Virus record (IMG/VR): IMGVR_UViG_2728369553_000012
DNA: 29,305 nt
Origin: a virus
Lineage: Duplodnaviria; Heunggongvirae; Uroviricota; Caudoviricetes
Strand: one strand, 5' to 3'
The notes under the pieces are model-generated. The model worked only from the letters and a program-made list of their open reading frames with translations, was not told where the DNA came from and ran no database searches. Of this stretch, positions 7,893-28,222 are shown piece after piece. The stretch's first letter is position 1, and every line of letters starts with the position of its first letter. Both the position numbers and the translations under genes were made by a program.

Positions 7893-9664
7893 CAGTAAAA
7901 CTCCAGAATGGTGGATGTCAGCGGAGTGCTGATACCGGCGGTGAGTGGCTCATTTAACAGGGCGTGCATGGTTGCCCAGGCGAGGTCGGCGTGGCTGGCT
8001 TCCTCGCTGCGGCTGGCCTCATAGGTGGCGCTGCGTCCGCTGCTGGTCATGGTCTTGCGGATAGCCATAAACGAGCTGGTGATGTCGGTGGCGCTGACGT
8101 CATATTCCAGACAGCCACGGCGGATAACGTCTTTTGCCTTGAGCACCATTGCGGTTTTCATTTCCGGCGTGTAGCGGATATCGCGCGCGGCGGGATAGAA
8201 CGAGCGCACGAGCTGGAACACGCCGACACCGAGGCCGGTGGCATCAATACCGATGTATTCGACGTTGTATTTTTCGGTGAGTTTGCGGATGGATTCCGCC
8301 TGAGTGGCAAAGTCCATGCCTTTCCACTGGTGACGCTCAAGTATTCTGAATTTGCCACCGGCCACCACCGGCGGTGCCAGCACCACGCATCCGGCGCTGT
8401 CGCCACGGTGTGACGGGTCGTAACCAATCCATACCGGGCGGGAGCCGAACGGATTCGCGGCAAACGGCGCATAGTCTTCCCATTCTTCCAGCGTGTCGAC
8501 CATGCAGCGTTGCAGCTCCTCGAACGGGAACACCGACGCCTTGTCGTCAACAAATTCACACATGAACAGGTTTTTAAAATCGTCGGCGCTGTTTTCGCGT
8601 TTAAGCTGCTCAATGTCGAACAGCGTGCAGCCACCTTTCAGGGCGTCCTCAATGGTGACAATCTGCCGCCACTGGCCGTCCGCACAGAGAAGCCCACCGG
8701 CAAGGGCGTTATGACTGACGTCGATTTCCACGCGTTCGGCGGCGCTGGCGCGTCCCCGGTTGAACAGTTCACCCGACCAGAACGGATAGGCGTCGTGCGC
8801 CAGCGTGGACGGGGTGGAGAAATAGGTCGAGCGCAGGTGACTCTGTGAGGCCATACCTGATGCCACCTTACGCAGTACCTGAAAATTCGGGATCCAGAAA
8901 ATCTCATCGACGTACAGGTCGCCGTTATGGCTCTGCGCGGTGTTGGAGTTGGTGCCGAGAAAAATCAGTTTTGCGCCGTTATTGCCCAGGACAATCGGGT
9001 CACCGGTCAGGTCAACGTCAACCAGCCGGGCAAAGGCGATGATGTATTCGCGGAACACATACGCCTGCGTTTTACTGGCCGACAGAAAAATCTGGTTATG
9101 ACCGGTTTTCAGGGCGCGCAGCAGCGCCTCGCGGGAAAAATAAAACGTCGCGCCAATCTGGCGGGATTTCAGGATATCGCGGATGCGGTGCTCAAGCCCG
9201 GCGCGATACCAGTGCAACTGATAGTCGAAAGACTGCTCAAAGAAAATCTGCTCCAGCTTTTCGATGGCCTCGTCACTGAAAAAATTCTTTTTCGGTTTGC
9301 GACGCCCGCCTTTGTTGCGGTTAGCGACGTTCGGATTAAGGTCTGCCTCGTTGCCGGTCTGACTGTAGCGGTTGACCCGCGCCAGCCGTTCAATCTGGCG
9401 TCCCAGCAGGTCAATTTCCTTGAAGTCACCGCCGGTTTTCTGCGGTTTGATGATGAGCTGGGTCAGCCGCGCTTCCAGACTCATTTCGACACGGCTGATG
9501 GGGGCAACGCTGTCCCAGCCGTCGCGCTGTTTCCAGCTCTGCACCGTCGGGCGTTTCATCTGCAACATGGCGGCAATCTGCGGCACGGAAAACCCCTGCC
9601 AGTACAGCAGCGCCGCCTGACGACGCGGGTCGTGTAAAAGAGTGGTGTCTGTGGTGATGGTCAT
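7892..9664 (-). CDS. P: Terminase large (ATPase) subunit (P2 gpP-like)
   Basis: ORF 7892..9694; start at the internal ATG 9664 (MTITTDTTLL) gives 590 aa, the P2 P length. Leftward, divergent from O. Confidence 0.9.
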   Translation of the reverse strand: MTITTDTTLLHDPRRQAALLYWQGFSVPQIAAMLQMKRPTVQSWKQRDGWDSVAPISRVEMSLEARLTQLIIKPQKTGGDFKEIDLLGRQIERLARVNRYSQTGNEADLNPNVANRNKGGRRKPKKNFFSDEAIEKLEQIFFEQSFDYQLHWYRAGLEHRIRDILKSRQIGATFYFSREALLRALKTGHNQIFLSASKTQAYVFREYIIAFARLVDVDLTGDPIVLGNNGAKLIFLGTNSNTAQSHNGDLYVDEIFWIPNFQVLRKVASGMASQSHLRSTYFSTPSTLAHDAYPFWSGELFNRGRASAAERVEIDVSHNALAGGLLCADGQWRQIVTIEDALKGGCTLFDIEQLKRENSADDFKNLFMCEFVDDKASVFPFEELQRCMVDTLEEWEDYAPFAANPFGSRPVWIGYDPSHRGDSAGCVVLAPPVVAGGKFRILERHQWKGMDFATQAESIRKLTEKYNVEYIGIDATGLGVGVFQLVRSFYPAARDIRYTPEMKTAMVLKAKDVIRRGCLEYDVSATDITSSFMAIRKTMTSSGRSATYEASRSEEASHADLAWATMHALLNEPLTAGISTPLTSTILEFY

Positions 9665-11827: not shown

Positions 11828-12633
11828 ATGACGAGTCCCGCACAGCGCCACATGATGCGGGTCTCGGCAGCGATGACCGCGCAGCGGGAAGCCGCCCCGC
11901 TGCGACATGCAACTGTCTATGAGCAGATGCTGGTTAAGCTCGCCGCAGACCAGCGCACACTGAAAGCGATTTATTCAAAAGAGCTTAAGGCCGCGAAAAA
12001 ACGCGAACTGCTGCCGTTCTGGTTGCCGTGGGTGAACGGCGTGCTGGAGCAGGGCAAAGGTGCACAGGATGACATTCTGATGACGGTCATGCTGTGGCGT
12101 CTGGATACCGGCGATATTGCCGGTGCGCTGGAGATTGCCCGTTATGCCCTGAAGTACGGTCTGACCATGCCGGGTAAACACCGCCGCACCCCGCCGTACA
12201 TGTTCACCGAGGAGGTGGCGCTTGCGGCCATGCGTGCTCACGCTGCCGGTGAGTCTGTGGATACCCGCCTGCTGACGGAGACCCTTGAACTGACCGCCAC
12301 GGCTGACATGCCTGATGAAGTGNNNNNNNNNNNNNNNNNNNNNNNNNNNNNNNNNNNNNNNNNNNNNNNNNNNNNNNNNNNNNNNGCGCAAAGCTGCACA
12401 AAATCACCGGTCTGTTTCTGCGTGACGGTGGTGATGCCGCCGGTGCGCTGGCTCACCTGCAACGTGCGACACAGCTCGACTGTCAGGCAGGCGTCAAAAA
12501 AGAGATTGAACGACTGGAGCGGGAGCTGAAACCGAAGCCGGAGCCGCAGCCCAAAGCGGCCACCCGTACCCCGCGTAAGACCCGGAGCGTGACACCGGCA
12601 AAACGTGGACGCCCGAAAAAGAAAGCCAGTTAA
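11828..12633 (+). CDS. M: Terminase small (endonuclease) subunit (P2 gpM-like), interrupted by an N run
   Basis: Follows N. Contains 63 N at 12323-12385, after which the frame changes; the C-terminal part ends at TAA 12631-12633 with a basic PKPEPQPKAATRTPRKTRS tail. True length unknown. Confidence 0.7.
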
Positions 12634-13242: not shown

Positions 13243-13521
13243 TGAAGACCTTTGCGCTACAGGGCGACACGCTCGACGCCATTTGTGTCCGGTATTACGG
13301 GCGCACTGAGGGCGTGGTTGAGACCGTGCTCGCCGCAAATCCGGGACTGTCTGAACTGGGTGCGGTGCTGCCACACGGCACCGCCGTCGAACTGCCCGAC
13401 GTTCAGACCGCGCCCGTGGCTGAAACNNNNNNNNNNNNNNNNNNNNNNNNNNNNNNNNNNNNNNNNNNNNNNNNNNNNNNNNNNNNNNNNNNNNNNNNNN
13501 NNTGTCAATCTGTGGGAGTAA
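13242..13521 (+). CDS. X: Tail protein X (P2 gpX-like), interrupted by an N run
   Basis: MKTFALQGDTLDAICVRYYGRTEGVVETVLAANPGL... matches P2 X (67 aa) as recalled, ending VNLWE after the N run 13427-13502. The N run is longer than the residues it replaces. Confidence 0.75.
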
Positions 13522-14317: not shown

Positions 14318-14797
14318 ATGAAGAAATTATCCCTTTCACTGACGCTGAACGTGTCGCTGGCGCTGATGCTGGCACTGTCCCTGATTTACCCGCAGAGCGT
14401 GGCCGTTAATTTTGTCGCCGCCTGGGCGATTATGGCGACGGTTATCTGTGTGGTTGCCGGTGGTGTCGGCGTGTATGCCACGGAGTATGTACTGGAACGC
14501 TACGGGCGGGAGCTGCCGCCGGAATCGCTGGCCGTGAAGATTGTCACGTCGCTGTTTTTGCAGCCGGTGCCGTGGCGCAGACGGGCGGCGGCTCTGGTAG
14601 TGATGGTGGCGACGTTTATCTCGCTGGTCGCTGCCGGGTGGATTTTTACTGCGCTGATTTATCTCGTGGCGTCGCNNNNNNNNNNNNNNNNNNNNNNNNN
14701 NNNNNNNNNNNNNNNNNNNNNNNNNNNNNNNNNTTTCCGGCTGATACGCACGGCCTGCCGTCAGCGTCTTGAGGGGCGGGAACTATGTCAAAGCTGA
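14318..14797 (+). CDS. lysA: Lysis timing membrane protein LysA-like, interrupted by an N run
   Basis: Multi-pass hydrophobic protein after K; 58 N at 14676-14733; stop overlaps the lysB start. Confidence 0.65.
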   Translation: MKKLSLSLTLNVSLALMLALSLIYPQSVAVNFVAAWAIMATVICVVAGGVGVYATEYVLERYGRELPPESLAVKIVTSLFLQPVPWRRRAAALVVMVATFISLVAAGWIFTALIYLVASXXXXXXXXXXXXXXXXXXXXFRLIRTACRQRLEGRELCQS

Positions 14798-17280: not shown

Positions 17281-18189
17281 ATGCCGATTATCGACCTGAA
17301 CCAGCTACCCGCACCGGATGTGGTCGAGGAGCTGGACTTTGAAACCATTCTTGCCGAACGCAAGGCGACACTGATTTCCCTTTACCCGGAAGACCAGCAG
17401 GAGGCGGTCGCCCGTACCCTGACGCTGGAATCTGAGCCTCTCGTCAAACTGCTGGAGGAAAATGCTTATCGTGAGCTTATCTGGCGTCAGCGTGTGAATG
17501 AGGCCGCACGGGCGGTGATGCTGGCCTGTGCCGCCGGTAATGACCTTGATGTGATTGGTGCCAATTACAACACCACGCGCCTGACTATCACCCCGGCAGA
17601 TGATTCGACCATCCCGCCGACACCGGCAGTGATGGAGTCTGACACCGATTATCGTCTGCGTATTCAGCAGGCGTTTGAAGGTTTAAGCGTCGCCGGGTCG
17701 GTGGGTGCCTATCAGTATCATGGCCGCAGTGCCGACGGGCGTGTCGCGGATATTTCTGTCACCAGTCCGTCTCCGGCCTGCGTCACTATCTCTGTGCTGT
17801 CACGTGAAAATAACGGTGTCGCATCCGAAGACCTGCTGGCCGTGGTGCGTAACGCCCTGAATGGCGAGGACGTCAGGCCGGTGGCCGACCGCGTGACCGT
17901 GCAGTCTGCCGCCATCGTTGAATACCAGATAAACGCCACGCTTTACCTTTACCCTGGTCCCGAAAGCGAACCCATCCGCGCTGCCGCCGTGAAAAAACTG
18001 GAAGCGTATATCACGGCACAGCACCGGCTGGGGCGCGATATCCGTCTGTCTGCCATTTATGCCGCTTTGCATGTGGAAGGTGTGCAGCGTGTCGAACTGG
18101 CTGCACCGCTGGCTGACATCGTGCTCAACAGTACGCAGGCGTCTTTCTGTACCGAATACAGCGTCGTGACCGGAGGCTCGGATGAGTGA
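17281..18189 (+). CDS. J: Baseplate protein J (P2 gpJ-like)
   Basis: 302 aa, the P2 J length. Confidence 0.85.
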   Translation: MPIIDLNQLPAPDVVEELDFETILAERKATLISLYPEDQQEAVARTLTLESEPLVKLLEENAYRELIWRQRVNEAARAVMLACAAGNDLDVIGANYNTTRLTITPADDSTIPPTPAVMESDTDYRLRIQQAFEGLSVAGSVGAYQYHGRSADGRVADISVTSPSPACVTISVLSRENNGVASEDLLAVVRNALNGEDVRPVADRVTVQSAAIVEYQINATLYLYPGPESEPIRAAAVKKLEAYITAQHRLGRDIRLSAIYAALHVEGVQRVELAAPLADIVLNSTQASFCTEYSVVTGGSDE

Positions 18190-18793
18190 TTCGCGACTGC
18201 TGCCGACCGGCTCATCACTGCTTGAAGTTGCCGCCGCAAAAGCCTGTGCGGAAATTGAAAAAACGCCGGTCAGTATTCGTGAGCTGTGGAACCCGGACAC
18301 CTGCCCGGCAAATCTGCTGCCGTGGCTGGCGTGGTCATTTTCGGTTGACCGCTGGGATGATAAATGGCCGGAAGCGACAAAACGCGCTGTTATCCGCGAT
18401 GCGTATTTCATTCACTGCCATAAGGGCACTATAGGCGCAATCCGGCGTGTGGTGGAGCCGCTCGGCTATCTGATTGAGGTGAGGGAGTGGTGGCAGCTCA
18501 ACGAGGAGCCGGGGACGTTCCGTATCGTTGTTGGCGTGCTTGAGCAGGGTATTACCGAAGAAATGTATCAGGAGCTGGAGCGCCTAGTTGCTGATGCAAA
18601 ACCGGCAAGCCGCCATCTGACGGGACTGGCTATCAGTTTAAGTACAACCGGCAACATTTTTGCCGGTGCGGGATGCTATCACGGTGACGCCCTGACGGTT
18701 TATCCCTACACCCCGGAGGCCATTATTGTCGGAGGGGATTATTTCCCGGCCTCGGCCATTCATTTAATTGATAACCTGAGAGTAAACGCATGA
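18182..18793 (+). CDS. I: Baseplate protein I (P2 gpI-like)
   Basis: 203 aa between J and the tail-fibre gene, overlapping both neighbours. Longer than P2 I (176 aa as I recall). Confidence 0.75.
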
Positions 18794-19950
18794 CAGTGAA
18801 ATACTACGCCATTCTGACTAATCAGGGCGCAGCACGGCTGGCTAACGCGACGATGCTCGGCAGTAAGCTGAATCTGACGCAAATGGCCGTTGGTGATGCG
18901 AATGGTGTCTTGCCGACACCAGACCCGGCACAGACAAAACTGATTAACCAGAAACGCATCGCGCCGCTGAATCTTCTGAGTGTTGACCCGAACAACCAGA
19001 GCCAGATTATTGCGGAGCAAATCATCCCTGAGAACGAGGGCGGATTCTGGATCCGTGAGATTGGGCTTTATGATGATGAAGGCGTACTCATTGCGGTGGC
19101 GAACTGCCCGGAAACGTACAAACCGCAGTTGCAGGAAGGCAGTGGTCGTACCCAGACTATCCGCATGATTCTGGTTGTCACGAATACCGAAGCTATCACG
19201 CTGAAAATCGACCCGTCGGTGGTACTGGCGACCCGTAAATACGTGGATGATGAAGTCCTGGAATTAAGGCTGTATGTGGATGACCAGATGAGAAACCACA
19301 TTGCCGCACAGGATCCTCATACCCAGTATGCGCAGAAACATAATCCGACATTTACCGGAGAACCAAAAGCGCCGACGCCTGCCGCAGGAAATAACACCAC
19401 GCGGATTGCGACCACTGCGTTTGTTCAGGCCGCTATTACCGCTCTGATTAACGGTGCGCCAGCCACGCTGGACACACTGAAAGAAATTGCCGCAGCCATT
19501 AACAATGACCCGAAATTCAGTACCACCATTAACAATGCGCTGTCAGGTAAGCAGCCACTGGATGAGACGCTGACTCATTTGAGTGGAAAGGATGTAGCTG
19601 GTCTTCTCGCATACCTTGGTTTGGGAGAAGCGGCAAAACGGAATGTGGGAACAGGGGAAAATCAGATACCTGATATGTCATCATATGCATCAGGTTCAGG
19701 CTGGCGAAAAATGCCAGATGGTTCAATTGAACAGTGGGGACGAATTAGTTTTCCTGGTGAACACGGGCCTGTATCCGCCAATGTTTCATTCCCGATTCCA
19801 TTTACACAGACACCGGGCATTGTAATTGTGTGCGATGGTGGTTTCGGGGGCGGGAATATGTGGGGGGCGACCAACTGGAGCACTACCGGCTTCATAGCTC
19901 ACTGCAATTATGGTCTTGAAGGTGGTGCGTTTTTCGCTAAGGGCTGGTAA
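18790..19950 (+). CDS. H: Tail fibre protein: constant N-terminal part fused to a variable C-terminal cassette in the current orientation
   Basis: 386 aa, in the P2 H position but shorter than P2 H (669 aa as I recall). The inversion crossover site lies inside the gene at 19604-19629, so residues after it belong to the invertible segment. Confidence 0.8.
19604..19629. repeat. Left crossover site of the invertible tail-fibre segment (gix/pix-like)
   Basis: TTCTCGCATACCTTGGTTTGGGAGAA; its last 14 nt (19616-19629) are the exact reverse complement of 21429-21442. Confidence 0.6.
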
Positions 19951-20393
19951 TGATGAAATATCTGTACGTAAACAACCTGGCATATCCTTACGAACTTCAG
20001 TCTCTTTATGTTGAAAAAGGTGAATGGCCTGAAGAAAAAGGTGTTGATATAGACGAAGTAATTTTCAGGGAATATTTCTATGACACACCACCAGAAGGAA
20101 AATACAGATGTGTTGGAGAAGATGGACTGCCTGCATGGGCAGATATTCCTCCACCAACACGTGAAGAACAAATTGCATCAGCCGAAACTAAAAAGCAGCA
20201 ATTGATTAATCAGGCCAACGATTATATGAACAGTAGACAATGGGTTGGTAAAGCGGCTATTGGTCGTCTGAAAGGTGAGGAACTGGCGCAATATAATTTG
20301 TGGCTGGATTATCTGGACGCACTGGAGCTGGTCGATACTTCCAGTGCACCAGATATTGAATGGCCTACTCCTCCGGCAGTTCAGGCCAGATGA
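19950..20393 (+). CDS. G: Tail fibre assembly protein (expressed orientation)
   Basis: 147 aa directly after H; C-terminus LDYLDALELVDTSSAPDIEWPTPP parallels the C-terminus of the inverted-orientation paralogue. Confidence 0.8.
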   Translation: MMKYLYVNNLAYPYELQSLYVEKGEWPEEKGVDIDEVIFREYFYDTPPEGKYRCVGEDGLPAWADIPPPTREEQIASAETKKQQLINQANDYMNSRQWVGKAAIGRLKGEELAQYNLWLDYLDALELVDTSSAPDIEWPTPPAVQAR

Positions 20394-20976
20394 CATCCGG
20401 CGCGGTGCTGGTATCTGTTGCCGTCACCGCGTCAATGTAATCCAGCACCGTGTTAAGTCGGCTGGTTTCTGCCTGCGTCAGATTCCGTCCGGCCCGTAAT
20501 TTCAGTTGAATCAGACTGATGGAAGCCATTGCAGTATCAATCAGCGACTGGCGTTGTGCTTCTGCTGCATCTACTGCGGCGCTATGCTGTGCATCGGTAT
20601 CCGTCACCCATTTCTCACCATCCCATTTATCGTATGGTGTTAACGGGGCGATAGTGGTTGTATTATCAGGGTAATCACCCGGAGCTGTGATTTCTTTTGA
20701 TTCTCCTGTTTCGGTGCTAAAGACGATTTCACCGCGATGGTCTGGCACATATTCCCATGAGTTAAAATCTGCAGAACGGCAGATTGCATAACCAGCCTTA
20801 TGTGTAACTGGTGCATCTAAACAAGAACATGCCGGGATACCGACGCCAACCGTAAGATATTCAGTTGATGTGGAAATATATTCCCGCGTTTCTCCGTTGT
20901 AGTTGTAAACGGTAATGAAGCCAGCCTCTGTGGCAAATCCGTTTTCATCCAAAGTGATTTTTTTTGTGGTCATCAT
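20365..20976 (-). CDS. Alternative tail fibre assembly protein (silent orientation)
   Basis: 203 aa on the minus strand, convergent with G; C-terminus LDYIDAVTATDTSTAPDVIWPELP is paralogous to G. Start ATG overlaps the stop of the upstream minus-strand fibre cassette. Confidence 0.75.
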   Translation of the reverse strand: MMTTKKITLDENGFATEAGFITVYNYNGETREYISTSTEYLTVGVGIPACSCLDAPVTHKAGYAICRSADFNSWEYVPDHRGEIVFSTETGESKEITAPGDYPDNTTTIAPLTPYDKWDGEKWVTDTDAQHSAAVDAAEAQRQSLIDTAMASISLIQLKLRAGRNLTQAETSRLNTVLDYIDAVTATDTSTAPDVIWPELPEE

Positions 20977-21428
20977 GCTGCCCTTACAATGTAGTTAAAT
21001 GCAATGTTACGTGGCCTTGTTTCTGCTGATGTTCTTGCACTCCTGGATAAATCAAGTGTCACACCATAGTAACTAAATGCATTACCAGTTGATGGAGCGG
21101 CATATTTAACCCCAGAACTAGAACCAACATTAAAAACTCCAGATGCTGAGGAAGCTGACCCCATAGTGTTATCAATCAGAGAACCCGTAACATTTTGCAT
21201 AGCGTCAAGTTGTTCGCTTAATAAAGCGCGTCCACTATCAACATCACGCCCGTCATCCCAGCCACGAATAAATTCACCTCGTAAATCAGGCAATTTATTT
21301 GTCGGATAAGCCTTTGCCAGTTCCGGGTATTCTTCAGCAGAAAAAAACGCACCGTTGCATTTCAGCCAGCCTGTTGGCGGAGTGGTGGAAGGCCACGGAA
21401 CAGGCACGCCAACGGGTAATGCCGAACC
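20973..21428 (-). CDS. Alternative tail-fibre C-terminal receptor-binding cassette; promoterless, expressed only after inversion fuses it to H
   Basis: Minus-strand ORF reading out of the right crossover site; fibre-tip-like sequence (LPVGVPVPWP...LPDLRGEFIRGWDDGR); no independent start expected. The same organisation as the Mu G segment and P1 C segment. Confidence 0.65.
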   Translation of the reverse strand, partial: GSALPVGVPVPWPSTTPPTGWLKCNGAFFSAEEYPELAKAYPTNKLPDLRGEFIRGWDDGRDVDSGRALLSEQLDAMQNVTGSLIDNTMGSASSASGVFNVGSSSGVKYAAPSTGNAFSYYGVTLDLSRSARTSAETRPRNIAFNYIVRAA

Positions 21429-21454
21429 TTCTCCCAAACCAACGTTTAAGAAAA
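21429..21454. repeat. Right crossover site of the invertible tail-fibre segment
   Basis: TTCTCCCAAACCAACGTTTAAGAAAA, an imperfect dyad resembling Gin/Pin/Hin-family recombination sites; inverted copy of the site at 19604-19629. Confidence 0.6.
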
Positions 21455-21509
21455 TGCAGAGATTACGGCTAACTGGCATCATCCCCGGTTTTTATTCAGG
21501 GGATCCATC

Positions 21510-21692
21510 ATGCTTATTGGCTATGTCCGCGTGTCAACAAATGACCAGAATACGGAATTGCAGCGTAACGCGCTGGAGTGCGCAGGATGTGAGCTGATTT
21601 TTGATATTGGCCTGTCCACGCTCTATAAAAAATTCCCCTCATCAGCGACAAAGAATAAATTGTGTCATCCCTTAGCCAACCGGGACAAATAG
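21510..21692 (+). pseudogene. Serine DNA invertase (Gin/Pin/Cin/Hin family) remnant with an in-frame internal deletion
   Basis: MLIGYVRVSTNDQNTELQRNALECAGCELIF matches the invertase N-terminus including the catalytic Ser motif. It is then joined directly to DIGLSTLYKKFP..., which matches the extreme C-terminus of Gin (...IYDVALSTLYKKHP...). About 150 residues of the catalytic domain and HTH are missing; only 60 codons remain. Confidence 0.8.
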
Positions 21693-21751
21693 CCTGACAT
21701 CTCCGGCACAACTGAAAATATCACTCACCCATTAACCACGGAGTTAAACGG

Positions 21752-22942
21752 ATGAGTGACTATCATCACGGCGTGCAGGTGCTGGAGATTAACGACGGCA
21801 CCCGTGTCATTTCCACCGTATCCACTGCCATTGTTGGCATGGTCTGCACGGCCAGCGATGCGGATGCGGAAACCTTCCCCCTCAATAAACCGGTGCTGAT
21901 TACCAATGTGCAGAGCGCAATTGCAAAGGCCGGTAAAAAAGGCACGCTGGCGGCATCGTTGCAGGCTATCGCCGACCAGTCAAAACCGGTCACCGTTGTT
22001 GTGCGCGTGGAGGACGGCACCGGCGACGACGAAGAAACGAAACTTGCGCAGACCGTTTCCAATATCATCGGCACCACTGACGAAAACGGTCAGTACACCG
22101 GACTGAAAGCCCTGCTGGCGGCAGAGTCGGTAACCGGTGTTAAACCGCGTATTCTTGGTGTGCCGGGACTGGATACCAAAGAGGTGGCTGTAGCACTAGC
22201 ATCCGTCTGTCAGAAGCTGCGCGCTTTCGGGTATATCAGCGCATGGGGCTGTAAGACCATTTCCGAGGTGAAAGCCTACCGCCAGAATTTCAGCCAGCGT
22301 GAGCTGATGGTCATCTGGCCGGATTTCCTCGCATGGGATACGGTCACCAGTACCACCGCCACCGCGTATGCCACCGCTCGTGCGCTGGGGCTGCGCGCTA
22401 AAATCGACCAGGAGCAGGGCTGGCATAAAACGCTGTCCAACGTCGGGGTGAACGGTGTTACCGGCATCAGCGCATCTGTATTCTGGGATTTGCAGGAGTC
22501 CGGCACCGATGCTGACCTGCTTAACGAGTCAGGCGTCACTACGCTGATTCGCCGCGACGGTTTCCGCTTCTGGGGTAACCGTACCTGCTCTGATGACCCA
22601 CTGTTTCTCTTTGAAAACTACACCCGTACCGCGCAGGTGCTGGCCGACACGATAGCTGAGGCGCACATGTGGGCGGTGGACAAGCCCATCACCGCAACGC
22701 TGATTCGCGACATCGTTGACGGCATCAATGCCAAATTCCGTGAGCTGAAAACAAACGGCTATATCGTGGATGGCTCATGCTGGTTCAGCGAAGAATCCAA
22801 CGATGCGGAAACCCTCAAGGCCGGAAAACTGTATATCGACTACGACTATACACCGGTGCCTCCTCTCGAAAACCTGACCCTGCGCCAGCGTATTACCGAT
22901 AAATACCTGGCGAATCTGGTCACCTCGGTTAACAGCAATTAA
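21752..22942 (+). CDS. FI: Tail sheath protein (P2 gpFI-like)
   Basis: 396 aa, the P2 FI length, followed by the tube gene. Confidence 0.9.
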   Translation: MSDYHHGVQVLEINDGTRVISTVSTAIVGMVCTASDADAETFPLNKPVLITNVQSAIAKAGKKGTLAASLQAIADQSKPVTVVVRVEDGTGDDEETKLAQTVSNIIGTTDENGQYTGLKALLAAESVTGVKPRILGVPGLDTKEVAVALASVCQKLRAFGYISAWGCKTISEVKAYRQNFSQRELMVIWPDFLAWDTVTSTTATAYATARALGLRAKIDQEQGWHKTLSNVGVNGVTGISASVFWDLQESGTDADLLNESGVTTLIRRDGFRFWGNRTCSDDPLFLFENYTRTAQVLADTIAEAHMWAVDKPITATLIRDIVDGINAKFRELKTNGYIVDGSCWFSEESNDAETLKAGKLYIDYDYTPVPPLENLTLRQRITDKYLANLVTSVNSN

Positions 22943-22954
22943 GGAGCCTGACCG

Positions 22955-23473
22955 ATGGCAATGCCGCGCAAACTCAAGTTAATGAACGTCTTTCTGAACG
23001 GCTACAGCTATCAGGGCGTCGCGAAGTCCGTCACGCTACCAAAACTGACCCGTAAGCTCGAAAACTATCGCGGTGCGGGGATGAACGGCAGCGCACCGGT
23101 AGACCTCGGCCTTGATGACGATGCGCTGTCAATGGAGTGGTCGCTCGGTGGCTTCCCGGATTCGGTTATCTGGGAGCTTTACGCCGCAACCGGTGTGGAT
23201 GCCGTACCGATTCGTTTTGCAGGCTCTTACCAGCGCGACGATACCGGCGAAACGGTGGCCGTCGAGGTGGTCATGCGTGGACGTCAGAAAGAAATCGACA
23301 CCGGCGAGGGTAAACAGGGAGAAGACACCGAGTCGAAAATCTCCGTGGTCTGCACCTATTTCCTGCTGACGATGGACGGTAAGGAGCTGGTCGAAATTGA
23401 CACCATCAACATGATTGAGAAGGTGAACGGCGTCGACCGGCTGGAGCAACACCGCCGCAATATCGGCCTGTGA
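22955..23473 (+). CDS. FII: Tail tube protein (P2 gpFII-like)
   Basis: 172 aa, the P2 FII length. Confidence 0.9.
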   Translation: MAMPRKLKLMNVFLNGYSYQGVAKSVTLPKLTRKLENYRGAGMNGSAPVDLGLDDDALSMEWSLGGFPDSVIWELYAATGVDAVPIRFAGSYQRDDTGETVAVEVVMRGRQKEIDTGEGKQGEDTESKISVVCTYFLLTMDGKELVEIDTINMIEKVNGVDRLEQHRRNIGL

Positions 23474-23528
23474 TTTTCATCCGGTCAGCCAGGCTGACCG
23501 GTAACCCCGATTCAGAAGTGAGAAAACC

Positions 23529-23804
23529 ATGAACAAAGAAAATGTCATTACCCTGGACAATCCGGTCAAACGTGGTGAGCAGGTTATCGAACAGGTCACG
23601 CTGATGAAACCCAATGCCGGGACGCTGCGCGGTGTCAGTCTGGCTGCGGTTGCAAACTCCGAAGTCGATGCACTGATTAAAGTGCTGCCGCGCATGACGG
23701 CACCGATGCTGACCGAGCAGGAAGTCGCCGCGCTGGAACTGCCTGACCTTGTGGCGCTGGCCGGTAAGGTGGTCGGTTTTTTGTCGCCGAACTCGGTGCA
23801 GTGA
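23529..23804 (+). CDS. E: Tail assembly chaperone (P2 gpE-like)
   Basis: 91 aa, the P2 E length; contains the slippery heptamer TTTTTTG at 23777-23783 near its 3' end. Confidence 0.8.
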   Translation: MNKENVITLDNPVKRGEQVIEQVTLMKPNAGTLRGVSLAAVANSEVDALIKVLPRMTAPMLTEQEVAALELPDLVALAGKVVGFLSPNSVQ

Positions 23805-23956
23805 CGTTCCCGAAAAATCTCTCGGTCGATGACCTGATGGCGGATGTGGCAGTGATATTTCACTGGCCGCCATCAGAACTGTATCCCATGAGCCTGACCG
23901 AACTCATCACATGGCGCGAAAAGGCGCTCCGGCGAAGCGGAAACACGAATGAGTAA
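23783..23956 (+). CDS. E' extension of the -1 frameshift product E+E'
   Basis: The -1 frame is open from the slippery site to TAA at 23954-23956, overlapping the T start; this is the P2 E/E' arrangement. I traced the frame by hand. Confidence 0.6.
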   Translation, partial: VAELGAVTFPKNLSVDDLMADVAVIFHWPPSELYPMSLTELITWREKALRRSGNTNE

Positions 23957-26455
23957 CAATGTAAAATTACAGGTATTGCTCAGGGCTGTTGACCAGGCAT
24001 CCCGCCCGTTTAAATCCATCCGCACAGCGAGCAAATCGCTGTCGGGGGATATCCGGGAAACACAAAAATCACTGCGCGAGCTGAACGGTCAGGCGTCCCG
24101 TATTGAGGGATTTCGCAAGACCAGTGCACAGCTCGCCGTGACTGGTCATGCACTTGAAAAGGCACGGCAGGAGGCTGAAGCCCTTGCCACACAGTTTAAA
24201 AACACCGAACGTCCGACCCGTGCTCAGGCGAAAGTGCTGGAATCCGCAAAGCGTGCGGCGGAGGACTTACAGGCGAAATATAACCGCCTGACGGATTCCG
24301 TTAAACGCCAGCAGCGGGAACTGGCCGCTGTGGGAATTAATACCCGCAATCTTGCACATGATGAGCAGGGACTGAAAAACCGTATCAGTGAAACCACCGC
24401 ACAGCTTAACCGTCAGCGCGACGCGCTGGCGCGTGTCAGTGCGCAACAGGCAAAACTTAACGCAGTCAAACAGCGTTATCAGGCCGGAAAGGAACTGGCC
24501 GGAAATATGGCCTCGGTGGGCGCTGCCGGTGTGGGGATTGCGGCGGCGGGAACGATGGCCGGAGTTAAGCTGCTGATGCCCGGTTATGAGTTTGCGCAGA
24601 AAAACTCAGAATTGCAGGCCGTGCTCGGAGTGGCAAAAGACTCCGCCGAAATGACCGCACTACGCAAACAGGCGCGCCAGCTCGGCGACAATACCGCCGC
24701 CTCGGCGGATGATGCGGCCGGTGCACAGATAATCATCGCGAAAGCGGGTGGGGATGTTGATGCCATTCAGGCGGCAACGCCGGTCACGCTGAATATGGCG
24801 CTGGCGAACCGCCGCACGATGGAAGAAAACGCCGCCCTGCTGATGGGGATGAAATCCGCCTTTCAGCTTTCAAACGATAAGGTCGCTCATATCGGGGATG
24901 TTCTCTCCATGACGATGAACAAAACCGCCGCCGATTTTGACGGCATGAGCGATGCGCTGACCTATGCCGCACCTGTGGCAAAAAATGCCGGTGTCAGCAT
25001 TGAAGAAACCGCCGCAATGGTCGGGGCGCTGCATGATGCAAAAATCACAGGCTCAATGGCGGGGACGGGAAGCCGTGCCGTGTTAAGCCGCCTGCAGGCN
25101 NNNNNNNNNNNNNNNNNNNNNNNNNNNNNNNNNNNNNNNNNNNNNNNNNNNNNNNNNNNNCGACGGGAAAAGCATGGGATGCACTCAAAGAGCTTGGCGT
25201 GAAAACCTCAGACAGCAAGGGAAACACCCGGCCAATATTTACCATTCTGAAAGAAATGCAGGCCAGTTTTGAGAAAAACCGGCTCGGTACTGCCCAGCAG
25301 GCTGAATACATGAAAACTATTTTCGGGGAGGAGGCCAGCTCAGCCGCCGCCGTGCTGATGACTGCCGCCTCAACCGGAAAGCTGGACAAACTGACCGCTG
25401 CGTTTAAAGCCTCAGACGGGAAGACCGCCGAGCTGGTAAATATCATGCAGGACAACCTAGGCGGTGACTTTAAAGAGTTTCAGTCCGCTTATGAGGCAGT
25501 GGGGACTGACCTGTTTGACCAGCAGGAAGGCGCGCTGCGTAAGCTCACGCAGACGGCCACAAAGTATGTGTTAAAACTCGACGGCTGGATCCAGAAAAAC
25601 AAATCACTGGCGTCAACCATCGGCATCATTGCCGGTGGCGCGCTGGCGCTGACTGGCATCATCGGTGCCATTGGCCTCGTAGCCTGGCCGGTTATCACCG
25701 GCATCAATGCCATCATCGCGGCAGCAGGCGCAATGGGGGCAGTCTTCACGACGGTTGGCAGTGCTGTTATGACCGCCATCGGGGCTATTAGCTGGCCGGT
25801 TGTGGCCGTGGTGGCCGCAATTGTCACCGGGGCGTTGCTTATCCGTAAATACTGGGAGCCTGTCAGCGCATTCTTTGGCGGTGTGGTTGAAGGGCTGAAA
25901 GTGGCATTTGCGCCGGTGGGGGAACTGTTCACGCCACTTAAGCCGGTGTTTGACTGGCTGGGTGAAAAGTTACAGGCCGCGTGGCAGTGGTTTAAAAACC
26001 TGATTGCTCCGGTCAAAGCCACTCAGGACACCCTGAACAGTTGCCGTGACACGGGGGGCATGTTCGGGCAGGCACTGGCTGACGCGCTGATGCTGCCGCT
26101 TAATGCGTTCAACAAACTGCGCAGCGGTATTGACTGGGTACTGGAAAAACTCGGTGTTATCAACAAAGAGTCAGACACACTTGACCAGACCGCCGCCAGA
26201 ACTCAAGCCGCCACGTATGGCAGCGGTGGTTATATTCCGGCGACCAGCTCTTATGCAGGCTATCAGGCTTATCAGCCGGTCACGGCACCGGCTGGCCGCT
26301 CTTATGTGGACCAGAGTAAAAACGAATATCACATCAGCCTGACGGGTGGTACTGCGCCGGGGACACAGCTTGACCGCCAGTTACAGGATGCGCTCGAAAA
26401 ATACGAGCGGGATAAACGTGCGCGCGCCCGTGCCAGCATGATGCATGACGGTTAA
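23949..26455 (+). CDS. T: Tail tape measure protein (P2 gpT-like), interrupted by an N run
   Basis: Long helical, Ala/Gln-rich protein with a hydrophobic Gly/Ala-rich central segment. The N run 25100-25160 splits it into two ORFs in different frames in the track (23949..25202 and 25199..26455). Confidence 0.85.
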
Positions 26456-26469
26456 GGAGGTGACGAAAA

Positions 26470-27001
26470 ATGATGCTCGCGTTAGGTATGTTTGTTTTTA
26501 TGCGCCAGACGCTGCCACACCAGACCATGCAGCGTGAATCAGATTATCGCTGGCCGTCAAATTCCCGTATCGGTAAACGGGATGCCTACCAGTTTCTCGG
26601 TGTGGGTGAGGAAAACATGACGCTTGCCGGCGTGCTTTATCCCGAACTGACCGGCGGGAAGCNNNNNNNNNNNNNNNNNNNNNNNNNNNNNNNNNNNNNN
26701 NNNNNNNNNNNNNNNGACGATGACCACGCTCAGGCTGATGGCAGAGGAAGGCCGGGCGTGGCCGTTGCTGGATGGCACCGGCATGATTTACGGCATGTAT
26801 GTCATCAGCAGGGTGAGTGAAACAGGGAGTATTTTCTTTGCAGACGGCACACCCAGAAAAATTGATTTTACGCTGTCGCTCACCCGCGTTGATGAATCAC
26901 TGGCCGCGCTTTATGGCGATATCGGTAAACAGGCGGAATCGCTCATCGGTAAAGCTGGCAGTATGGCGACCAGATTCACGGGTATGACGGGGGCGGGATA
27001 A
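26470..27001 (+). CDS. U: Tail protein (P2 gpU-like), interrupted by an N run
   Basis: Between T and D; N run 26663-26715; stop overlaps the D start (TAATG). Confidence 0.75.
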
Positions 27002-28222
27002 TGCTGGATGCACTGACATTTGATGCAGGCAGTACGCTGACGCCGGATTACATGCTGATGCTCGACAGCAGGGATATTACCGGCAATATCAGCGACCGTC
27101 TGATGAGCATGACCCTGACGGATAACCGGGGCTTTGAGGCTGACCAGCTTGATATTGAACTGAACGATGCCGACGGGCAGGTCGGGCTGCCGGTTCGTGG
27201 CGCTGTCCTGACGGTGTATATCGGCTGGAAAGGTTTTGCCCTGGTATGCAAAGGGAAATTTACCGTTGATGAGGTTGAACACCGGGGCGCACCGGATGTG
27301 GTCACCATCCGCGCCCGGAGTGCAGATTTTCGCGGGACGCTCAATTCCCGCCGTGAAGGCTCATGGCATGACACCACGCTCGGTGCGATTGTTGAGGCGA
27401 TAGCCTCCCGTAATAAGCTGGAANNNNNNNNNNNNNNNNNNNNNNNNNNNNNNNNNNNNNNNNNNNNNNNNNNNNNNNNNNNNCAGTGTCGCGCCGTCAC
27501 TGGCAGGAATTAAAATCCCGCACATCGACCAGTCGCAGGAGTCTGATGCGAAATTCCTGACCCGTCTTGCAGAACGCAACGGCGGTGAGGTGTCGGTAAA
27601 AATGGGAAAACTGTTGTTTCTCAAAGCGGGGCAGGGGGTGACGGCCAGCGGTAAAAAAATCCCGCAGATTACCATCACCCGCAGCGACGGCGACCGCCAT
27701 CATTTTGCGATTGCTGACCGTGGAGCCTATACCGGCGTAACGGCAAAGTGGTTACACACCAAAGACCCGAAGCCACAAAAGCAGAAGGTAAAACTGAAAC
27801 GCAAAAAGAAAGAGAAACACCTGCGCGCACTGGAGCACCCGAAAGCGAAACCAGTCACGCAGAAGAAAGCGCCAAAAGTACCGGAAGCGCGCGAAGGTGA
27901 ATACATGGCAGGTGAGGCTGACAACGTTTTTGCCCTGACCACGGTATATGCCACGAAAGCGCAGGCCATGCGCGCCGCTCAGGCGAAGTGGGATAAGCTG
28001 CAACGGGGTGTTGCGGAATTCTCCATCAGTCTGGCTACTGGTCGGGCAGATATTTATACGGAAACGCCGGTCAAAGTGTCAGGCTTTAAGCGCGTCATAG
28101 ACGAGCAGGACTGGACAATCACTAAGGTGACACATTTTCTGAATAATAGCGGCTTCACGACGTCCTTAGAGCTTGAGGTCAGGCTTTCTGATGTGGAGTA
28201 CGAAACAGAAGATGATGAATGA
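27001..28222 (+). CDS. D: Tail protein D / late control gene D (P2 gpD-like), interrupted by an N run
   Basis: Last large late gene before ogr; N run 27424-27483; about 387 aa expected. Confidence 0.8.

Follow-up and report, generated by a model that had tools for sequence, protein, structure and literature searches.

The prophage and its invertible tail-fibre cassette

The window, which is the whole analysed stretch of 29,305 nucleotides (IMG/VR record IMGVR_UViG_2728369553_000012), comprises a complete P2-like (Peduovirus) prophage, from the integrase through ogr. The tail-fibre gene H, as currently fused, occupies 18790..19950 on the plus strand in the ORF list and matches the Pfam families Phage_tail_fib (E=2e-62) and Gp53-like_C. 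Codons 1-276 of H (to 19617) are constant, and codons 277-386 form the expressed variable C-terminus. The tail-fibre assembly gene that partners this expressed fibre tip follows on the same strand at 19950..20393 (Pfam Caudo_TAP, E=3e-33). The minus strand carries an alternative assembly gene at 20365..20976, silent in the present orientation (Pfam Caudo_TAP, E=1.4e-32), and an alternative fibre C-terminus at 20973..21441 that is likewise silent (Pfam Collar domain, E=8e-15). In E. coli MNCRE44, this assembly gene is found on the plus strand after H, and the alternative C-terminus is joined to the constant part to make a 431-aa H. The mechanical start of the 169-aa minus-strand ORF at 20973-21482, an ATG at 21482, lies past the right crossover site; only the portion to 21441 represents the silent alternative tip, and the N-terminal 13 codons are fixed flank outside the segment.

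The cassette is bounded by two 26-bp crossover sites, both intact, inverted, and with the same central dinucleotide. The left site, TTCTCGCATACC-TT-GGTTTGGGAGAA at 19604..19629, falls inside the H ORF and was recognized as an inverted repeat that is also present in Escherichia phage pro483 and all relatives examined. The right site, TTCTCCCAAACC-AA-CGTTTAAGAAAA at 21429..21454, has a central AA/TT that matches the left site in inverted form. The inner half of the left site is identical to the e14 P-segment site TTGGTTTGGGAGAAGG (PMC12529663), and the inner half-sites of the window are the e14 P-segment inversion sites quoted in that study. Between the central dinucleotides lies an invertible fibre segment of 1,823 bp (19618..21440), delimited by its 100% reverse-complement identity to the MNCRE44 segment. 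It contains the two alternative fibre C-termini and the two assembly genes on opposite strands, and the constant N-terminal part of H remains outside. The present orientation would give a 386-aa fibre and a 147-aa assembly protein, and the flipped orientation, as in MNCRE44, would give a 431-aa fibre and a 202-aa assembly protein. Both fusion products, the constant part with either tip, are annotated in relatives.

An ORF of 60 aa at 21510-21692 on the plus strand is placed by the ORF list between the tail-fibre cassette and the tail-sheath gene FI. The latter, at 21752..22942 on the plus strand, is the first gene of the pF-driven operon (ORF list; sheath annotation in pro483 and E. coli relatives). 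The gene order of pro483 is the same as in the window (J-I-H-cassette-invertase-FI), with ~96% DNA identity around the locus, and pro483 has a 197-aa "DNA invertase" where the window carries the 60-aa remnant.

This layout resembles the G-segment/Gin system of Mu, the C-segment/Cin system of P1 and the P-segment/Pin system of e14, all of which have two 26-bp inverted crossover sites, and alternative fibre C-termini with assembly genes on opposite strands. In these systems, as in the intact relatives of the window prophage, the invertase gene adjoins the segment and has the enhancer in its 5' coding end; such enhancers carry two Fis sites ~48 bp apart and lie ~100 bp from one crossover site. 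PinE of an e14-like element is ~90% identical to the intact homologue and its inner half-sites are common with the window. Inversion of the fibre segment of a P2-like prophage has been shown in cultures by sequencing in EPEC E2348/69 (PMC4272514). The intact P2-like switches, in pro483 and the EPEC E2348/69 prophages, have a 197-aa invertase, whereas the window has the 60-aa remnant. In contrast to the Mu, P1 and e14 systems, the cis-encoded invertase of the window lacks residues 32-168, and the switch would have to rely on an enzyme made elsewhere in the cell.

Six runs of N are present in the window (12323-12385, 13427-13502, 14676-14733, 25100-25160, 26663-26715 and 27424-27483) and their lengths are not true. 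The run at 25100-25160 has 61 Ns against 2 nt in a near-identical IMG/VR contig (AC in a relative), and the run at 13427-13502 has 76 Ns where the near-identical IMG/VR contig is contiguous. Since the runs are not length-true, the appearance of the tape-measure gene as two ORFs (23949-25202 and 25199-26455) is a masking artefact.

The invertase remnant and the cis elements around the deletion

When aligned to the intact 197-aa invertase of pro483, the window is missing 411 bp, or 137 codons, and is ~96% identical to pro483 on either side of the gap. The resulting pseudogene at 21510..21692 (plus strand) fuses residues 1-31 of a Gin/Pin-type invertase to residues 169-197 (DIGLSTLYKKFP... to the stop). 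The catalytic-serine motif YVRVSTNDQ (residues 5-13) is kept and is identical to that of Gin and the intact homologues. The intact homologue comprises a Resolvase domain at 3-135 (profile positions 2-144) and HTH_7 at 138-181, and aligns to Gin over residues 1-182 with E=1.6e-93. The deletion takes residues 32-135, which are most of the catalytic domain, and residues 138-168, which are most of HTH_7. The remnant matches Pfam Resolvase (PF00239) with E=3.5e-6 and 27.6 bits (cutoff 23.3) over profile positions 2-42 of 145 only, and its HTH_7 score of 14.2 bits over profile positions 30-44 of 45 only is below the cutoff of 23.8. Against the Gin structures 4M6F and 3UJ3 (E=3e-18), the remnant is matched in two stretches, with remnant 1-37 corresponding to Gin 1-37 and remnant 26-45 to Gin 163-182; its similarity to invertases is far above chance. 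NCBIfam has no specific model for this invertase family, and all of its matches were far below cutoff. PGAP labels the same allele in 25 genomes as 'recombinase family protein, incomplete', and thus already flags it as a pseudogene.

The remnant falls short of the full resolvase-type catalytic domain of ~135 aa, which includes the oligomerisation helix E. Because of this domain loss the 60-aa product cannot recombine DNA; judged by its domain content, it cannot be a working recombinase. A tblastn search of the whole window with the intact invertase found no second invertase, so that the alternative of an intact gene lying just beyond the interval scored in the first-pass annotation finds no support in the window. 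That annotation had described an invertase gene with an in-frame internal deletion and a retained N-terminus with the catalytic serine region, and both descriptions agree with the pro483 alignment, the Pfam and Gin comparisons, and the presence of residues 1-31 with YVRVSTNDQ. It was also right that the in-frame loss is large, but the measured size is 137 codons and not the ~150 residues it gave.

The junction is explained by a perfect 11-bp direct repeat, CTGATTTTTGA, which occurs in intact relatives at nt 85-95 and again, in frame with the first copy, at nt 496-506 of the gene, encoding Leu-Ile-Phe-(Glu/Asp) at both places. In the window, a single copy survives at the deletion junction (21594..21604, plus strand, by pro483 alignment). 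No other exact direct repeat in the gene is as long, and repeats of at least 11 nt turned up in 14 of 300 shuffles. The 11-bp repeat was found in all intact P2-type alleles examined, and pinE of the e14-like element has only one copy. A deletion between the two in-frame repeats removed codons 32-168, probably through replication slippage or short-homology recombination. The earlier proposal of recombination between micro-homologies is upheld as a deletion between short direct repeats; the 'IY-D' motif that it named is the Gin version, and both motif copies read LIF(E/D) in this P2-type lineage. An assembly or sequencing artefact was rejected as the source of the junction, which is identical in 25 complete genomes, in one IMG/VR contig, and in the 989 index blocks described below.

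The retained 5' part of the gene contains a homologue of the Hin enhancer. In hin, this element is 65 bp long, has a Fis site at each end with ATTTA and TAATG in between, and lies ~100 bp from hixL (PMC3798978). With this description, the Fis cores of hin were placed at nt 25-39 and 73-87, and alignment to the hin gene sequence then positions a putative recombinational enhancer at 21531..21593 in the window by positional homology. Its putative proximal Fis core, GTGTCAACAAATGAC, lies at 21531-21545 and its putative distal core, TGCGCAGGATGTGAG, at 21579-21593. The proximal core is nearly identical to that of hin (GTGTCAACAATTGAC). The centre of the distal core is G+C-rich in the window, pinE and pro483, unlike in hin. 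The Hin-enhancer homologue is wholly within the retained 5' 95 nt of the gene (its first ~85 nt), and the surviving repeat copy starts one base after the distal core, so the entire enhancer homologue is kept with 11 nt of native flank. The suggestion made earlier that the retained 5' segment may carry the enhancer therefore appears sound, as far as homology to hin can tell. The Hin/hix/Fis enhancer of Salmonella is likewise inside the 5' coding region of the invertase; the Salmonella hin switch acts on a flagellin promoter and the window switch on a phage fibre. The centres of the crossover site and the proximal Fis core are separated by 96.5 bp in the window (21441/21442 to 21538) and by 105.5 bp in hin (record L028, 3373/3374 to 3268). 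These values are about one helical turn apart, which is consistent with a small-loop phasing constraint.

The 3' side of the deletion is followed by the predicted late promoter of the sheath operon. The late-promoter motif is TGT-N12-ACA, and that spacing was not found upstream of FI. When the features of the P2 record NC_001895 were mapped by alignment, the homologue of the pF activator-binding site fell at 21655..21683 on the plus strand, within the 3'-terminal 40 nt of the remnant ORF, and the pF-equivalent transcription start at 21726-21728. The extra C-terminal tail of P2-type invertases, TKNKLCHPLANRDK, overlaps this late promoter, and PinE has no such tail. The overlap would forbid deletions that reach the 3' end of the gene. 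One breakpoint is just beyond the putative enhancer, and the other is ~50 nt upstream of the pF activator site. From the positions of these homologues, the deletion would therefore seem to have taken out hardly more than the DNA separating two cis elements required by the phage.

The conservation of the reading frame could also mean that the 60-aa product has acquired a new function, such as interfering with or tuning co-resident invertases, and that the frame is kept for this reason. In favour of this, the frame is open behind an intact native start region, and the identical 60-aa sequence is found very widely (the 989 index blocks). However, an in-frame outcome is automatic because both repeats share codon phase, the product has only 31 catalytic-domain residues and part of the HTH and is unlikely to fold, and the enhancer and the pF promoter already account for the DNA conservation at the 5' and 3' ends. 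A new function is thus highly improbable.

Orientation of the segment beside the deletion allele

The headline of the first-pass annotation was that the fibre switch is probably locked. This is contradicted by the window prophage itself, which is found in the opposite orientation in MNCRE44 with the same invertase deletion. The 1,823-bp segment of the window is 100% identical to the reverse complement of the MNCRE44 segment, and the flanks at 18078-19630 (1,553 bp) and 21428-25099 (3,672 bp) are also 100% identical, with no differences in 5.2 kb. The near-identical contig IMGVR_UViG_2671180841_000012 is interrupted by a gap of two Ns precisely at its right crossover site (positions 8190-8215, corresponding to 21428-21536 in the window). 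The 5 nt before this gap, GGTAT, are those of the flipped junction as in MNCRE44 and not CGTTT. The gap may be the trace of mixed orientations in the sequenced culture, with 2 discriminating bases only.

Three other cassette types behave in the same way, making four in total that occur in both orientations beside the same remnant. The cassettes of L031 and NCTC10973 are 100% identical when inverted, and those of L037 and 1332KP are 98.9% identical when inverted, in each case beside the identical 60-aa ORF. The remaining type belongs to a near-clonal prophage lineage of 18 complete genomes, in which the orientations are split 12:6. Over ~7 kb its members differ by no more than two informative SNPs, a singleton SNP and a few indels. 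A SNP-defined subclade consists of E-ge-1 (orientation A), P50 (orientation B) and 23CRST051 (orientation A). Since this subclade and the remainder each hold both orientations, at least two independent flips took place after the deletion, an estimate that rests on the two informative SNPs only. Together, these comparisons show that inversion went on after the deletion, as read from the genomes compared.

The precision of the exchange points to a serine invertase. In the 18-genome lineage the inner half-sites differ (TTCTCCCAAACC versus TTCTCCAAATCC), the change in sequence identity is confined to 4 bp around the central TT/AA, and the 1,189 bp of the interior match perfectly as reverse complement. 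Exchange within 4 bp at the central dinucleotide is the signature of a serine invertase and not of homologous recombination or RecA. Homologous recombination between inverted repeats was considered as the cause of the flips and rejected, given that the perfect inverted repeat in the window is 15 nt and only 4 bp are common at the exchange point in the 18-genome lineage. Replacement of a cassette from a flipped donor by homologous recombination could mimic inversion, but it would need many coincident events.

Two further observations concern individual genomes of the comparison. In NRZ95651, an IS21-family ISEc12 is inserted just after the sheath gene (L018 4834 onward), which makes this prophage copy defective. 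GYB01 has several frameshifts in H, FI and E that look like long-read indel errors.

A locked switch, with the fibre frozen at the time of deletion and the orientation differences arising from something other than ongoing inversion, would fit the clear inability of the remnant to catalyse recombination and the lack of another invertase in the window. In a host without a compatible invertase, the segment would indeed be fixed. A complete pinE knockout in K-12 is also reported to lock the P segment (PMC12529663). Nevertheless, that knockout loses the enhancer-bearing 5' end, whereas the natural deletion keeps it, and the locked state in K-12 would fit the loss of the enhancer along with the gene. 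The occurrence of four cassette types in both orientations beside the same deletion allele, the two or more flips behind the 12:6 split of a near-clonal lineage, the exchange exactly at the site centre, and the retention of the cis sites and the enhancer homologue all argue against a frozen fibre, and this explanation is unlikely. The headline is wrong because the data support the exception that the annotation itself named, which is action in trans.

The deletion allele is not confined to the window. Among 5,426 complete E. coli genomes, 25 contain a 43-mer able to match only the junction; the same junction is found in one IMG/VR contig, and 989 index blocks of public assemblies hold exactly the 60-aa product. 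This invertase type occurs in about 400 genomes, and the gene is intact in nearly all of them. The remnant haplotypes of six other E. coli strains have 0-2 differences from the window per ~314 positions outside the inner half-site, while over the same positions the LD27-1 remnant has 4 and pro483 has 13. The closest intact allele is 98.1% identical over 401 nt. An intact-invertase version was found among the 5,426 complete genomes neither for the 18-genome lineage nor for the window/MNCRE44 prophage. Because the remnant haplotypes are near-uniform compared with the intact alleles, they favour a single origin or very few origins, after which the allele spread and cassettes were exchanged. The LD27-1 remnant, with its 4 SNPs, may represent an independent deletion event.

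The same data bear on the alternative that the 11-bp repeat is a slippage hotspot at which intact, flipping prophages repeatedly lose the same 411 bp, so that no later inversion is needed. The repeat is well suited for this role as the longest exact direct repeat and one present in all intact P2-type alleles examined, the LD27-1 remnant haplotype is somewhat divergent, and about 400 genomes with nearly all genes intact are available as possible sources. On the other hand, apart from LD27-1 there is essentially one haplotype across the cassette backgrounds, unlike the intact alleles, and the 18-genome lineage and the window/MNCRE44 prophage lack an intact counterpart in the 5,426 complete genomes. 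Recurrent deletion would also require the identical event to have happened independently at least five times in backgrounds otherwise lacking SNPs, and it is quite improbable as the source of both orientations.

Candidate trans-acting invertases and the meaning of a probably borrowed enzyme

The locus is most likely (a probability of roughly 0.8) a non-autonomous tail-fibre switch of a P2-like prophage that is driven in trans by co-resident Pin-family invertases. The two crossover sites survived the deletion, as did, by hin homology, the Fis-dependent enhancer and, by P2 annotation, the late promoter, so that all parts required in cis are kept. The segment would still be inverted by Hin-family invertases from other resident elements, and the candidate donors are a second P2-like prophage, e14 Pin, PinQ/PinR and P1-type Cin. 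That the enzyme is borrowed, and which enzyme acts, is inferred. The first-pass annotation had mentioned a host or co-resident invertase acting in trans as a caveat to its headline; this caveat now appears to be the main story.

Loci similar to the deleted catalytic core were counted by a search with a lineage-specific tape-measure tag plus the deleted 411-bp core, from which a tag-only search was subtracted. Each of the 18 lineage chromosomes has 1-2 extra core-matching places, and MNCRE44 and SRY149 have 2 each. These places are DNA matches, mostly counted uninspected, and could be pseudogenes. In AF51, one extra place was inspected directly and belongs to a second P2-like prophage, whose 197-aa invertase is intact. 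PinQ and PinR are 38% identical to PinE and too divergent for the DNA core search, which makes the donor count conservative. PinE, PinQ and PinR all invert the e14 P segment (PMC12529663), and the e14 P-segment sites share the inner half-sites of the window.

The relationship with e14 extends to the cassettes. The 1.2-kb cassette of the 18-genome lineage (AR_0137, L003 2173-3361) is ~98% identical to an e14-like P segment (EC7, L027 2500-3720). It has the same inner half-sites, and its assembly protein WP_047149170.1 is identical to that of the EC7 e14-like element, where it is found next to pinE. Related cassettes are present on P1-like plasmids. Judged by these identities, unrelated types of prophage seem to swap fibre cassettes via common crossover sites and flanks.

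The deletion allele is a decayed member of a well-known class, and cross-complementation among these invertases is classical. Pin of e14 was reportedly found by Plasterk et al. in 1983 to complement Mu gin mutants. As far as it is cited in PMC4272514, Fin of Fels-2 acts on the Salmonella H segment (Kutsukake 2006). In the cases of PinQ/PinR (from Qin and Rac) on e14, of Fin, and of Pin on gin, a segment is flipped by the invertase of another element, as is proposed for the window. However, those cases involve laboratory mutants or redundancy with the cognate enzyme present. In contrast, the window has a natural, widespread allele that has lost the cognate enzyme altogether and has kept the sites and the enhancer homologue. 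What is less expected, therefore, is a widespread natural allele that would run its switch entirely on a borrowed enzyme.

A further step would be to regard the deletion not as mere decay but as a successful non-autonomous invertible element, in which selection maintains the sites, the enhancer and the late promoter that overlaps the gene. This proposal is doubtful. If it is true, fibre switching would be set by whichever other prophage invertases are present or induced in the host, such as PinQ/PinR, for which induction upon phage attack has been reported. The breakpoint positions would then reflect the survivorship of the only kind of deletion that is compatible with a viable and still-switchable phage, and the allele would be the inversion counterpart of a non-autonomous transposon.

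Inversion of the tail fibre determines which hosts are open to a temperate phage after induction. The annotation "invertase pseudogene" does not mean a dead switch, as the cis elements can persist and be driven by the enzymes of unrelated prophages. Orphan switches of this kind will escape pipelines that call phase-variable loci by "inverted repeats plus adjacent recombinase". The allele also provides a natural contrast to engineered knockouts, in that a segment whose 5' enhancer is spared would stay switchable, while full removal of pinE in K-12 is reported to leave the e14 segment locked. At 25 of 5,426 genomes, clinical carbapenem-resistant isolates included, it is common enough to be tested directly. 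If the switch does run on borrowed enzymes, host range would be a property of the whole prophage community of the cell and not of one phage.
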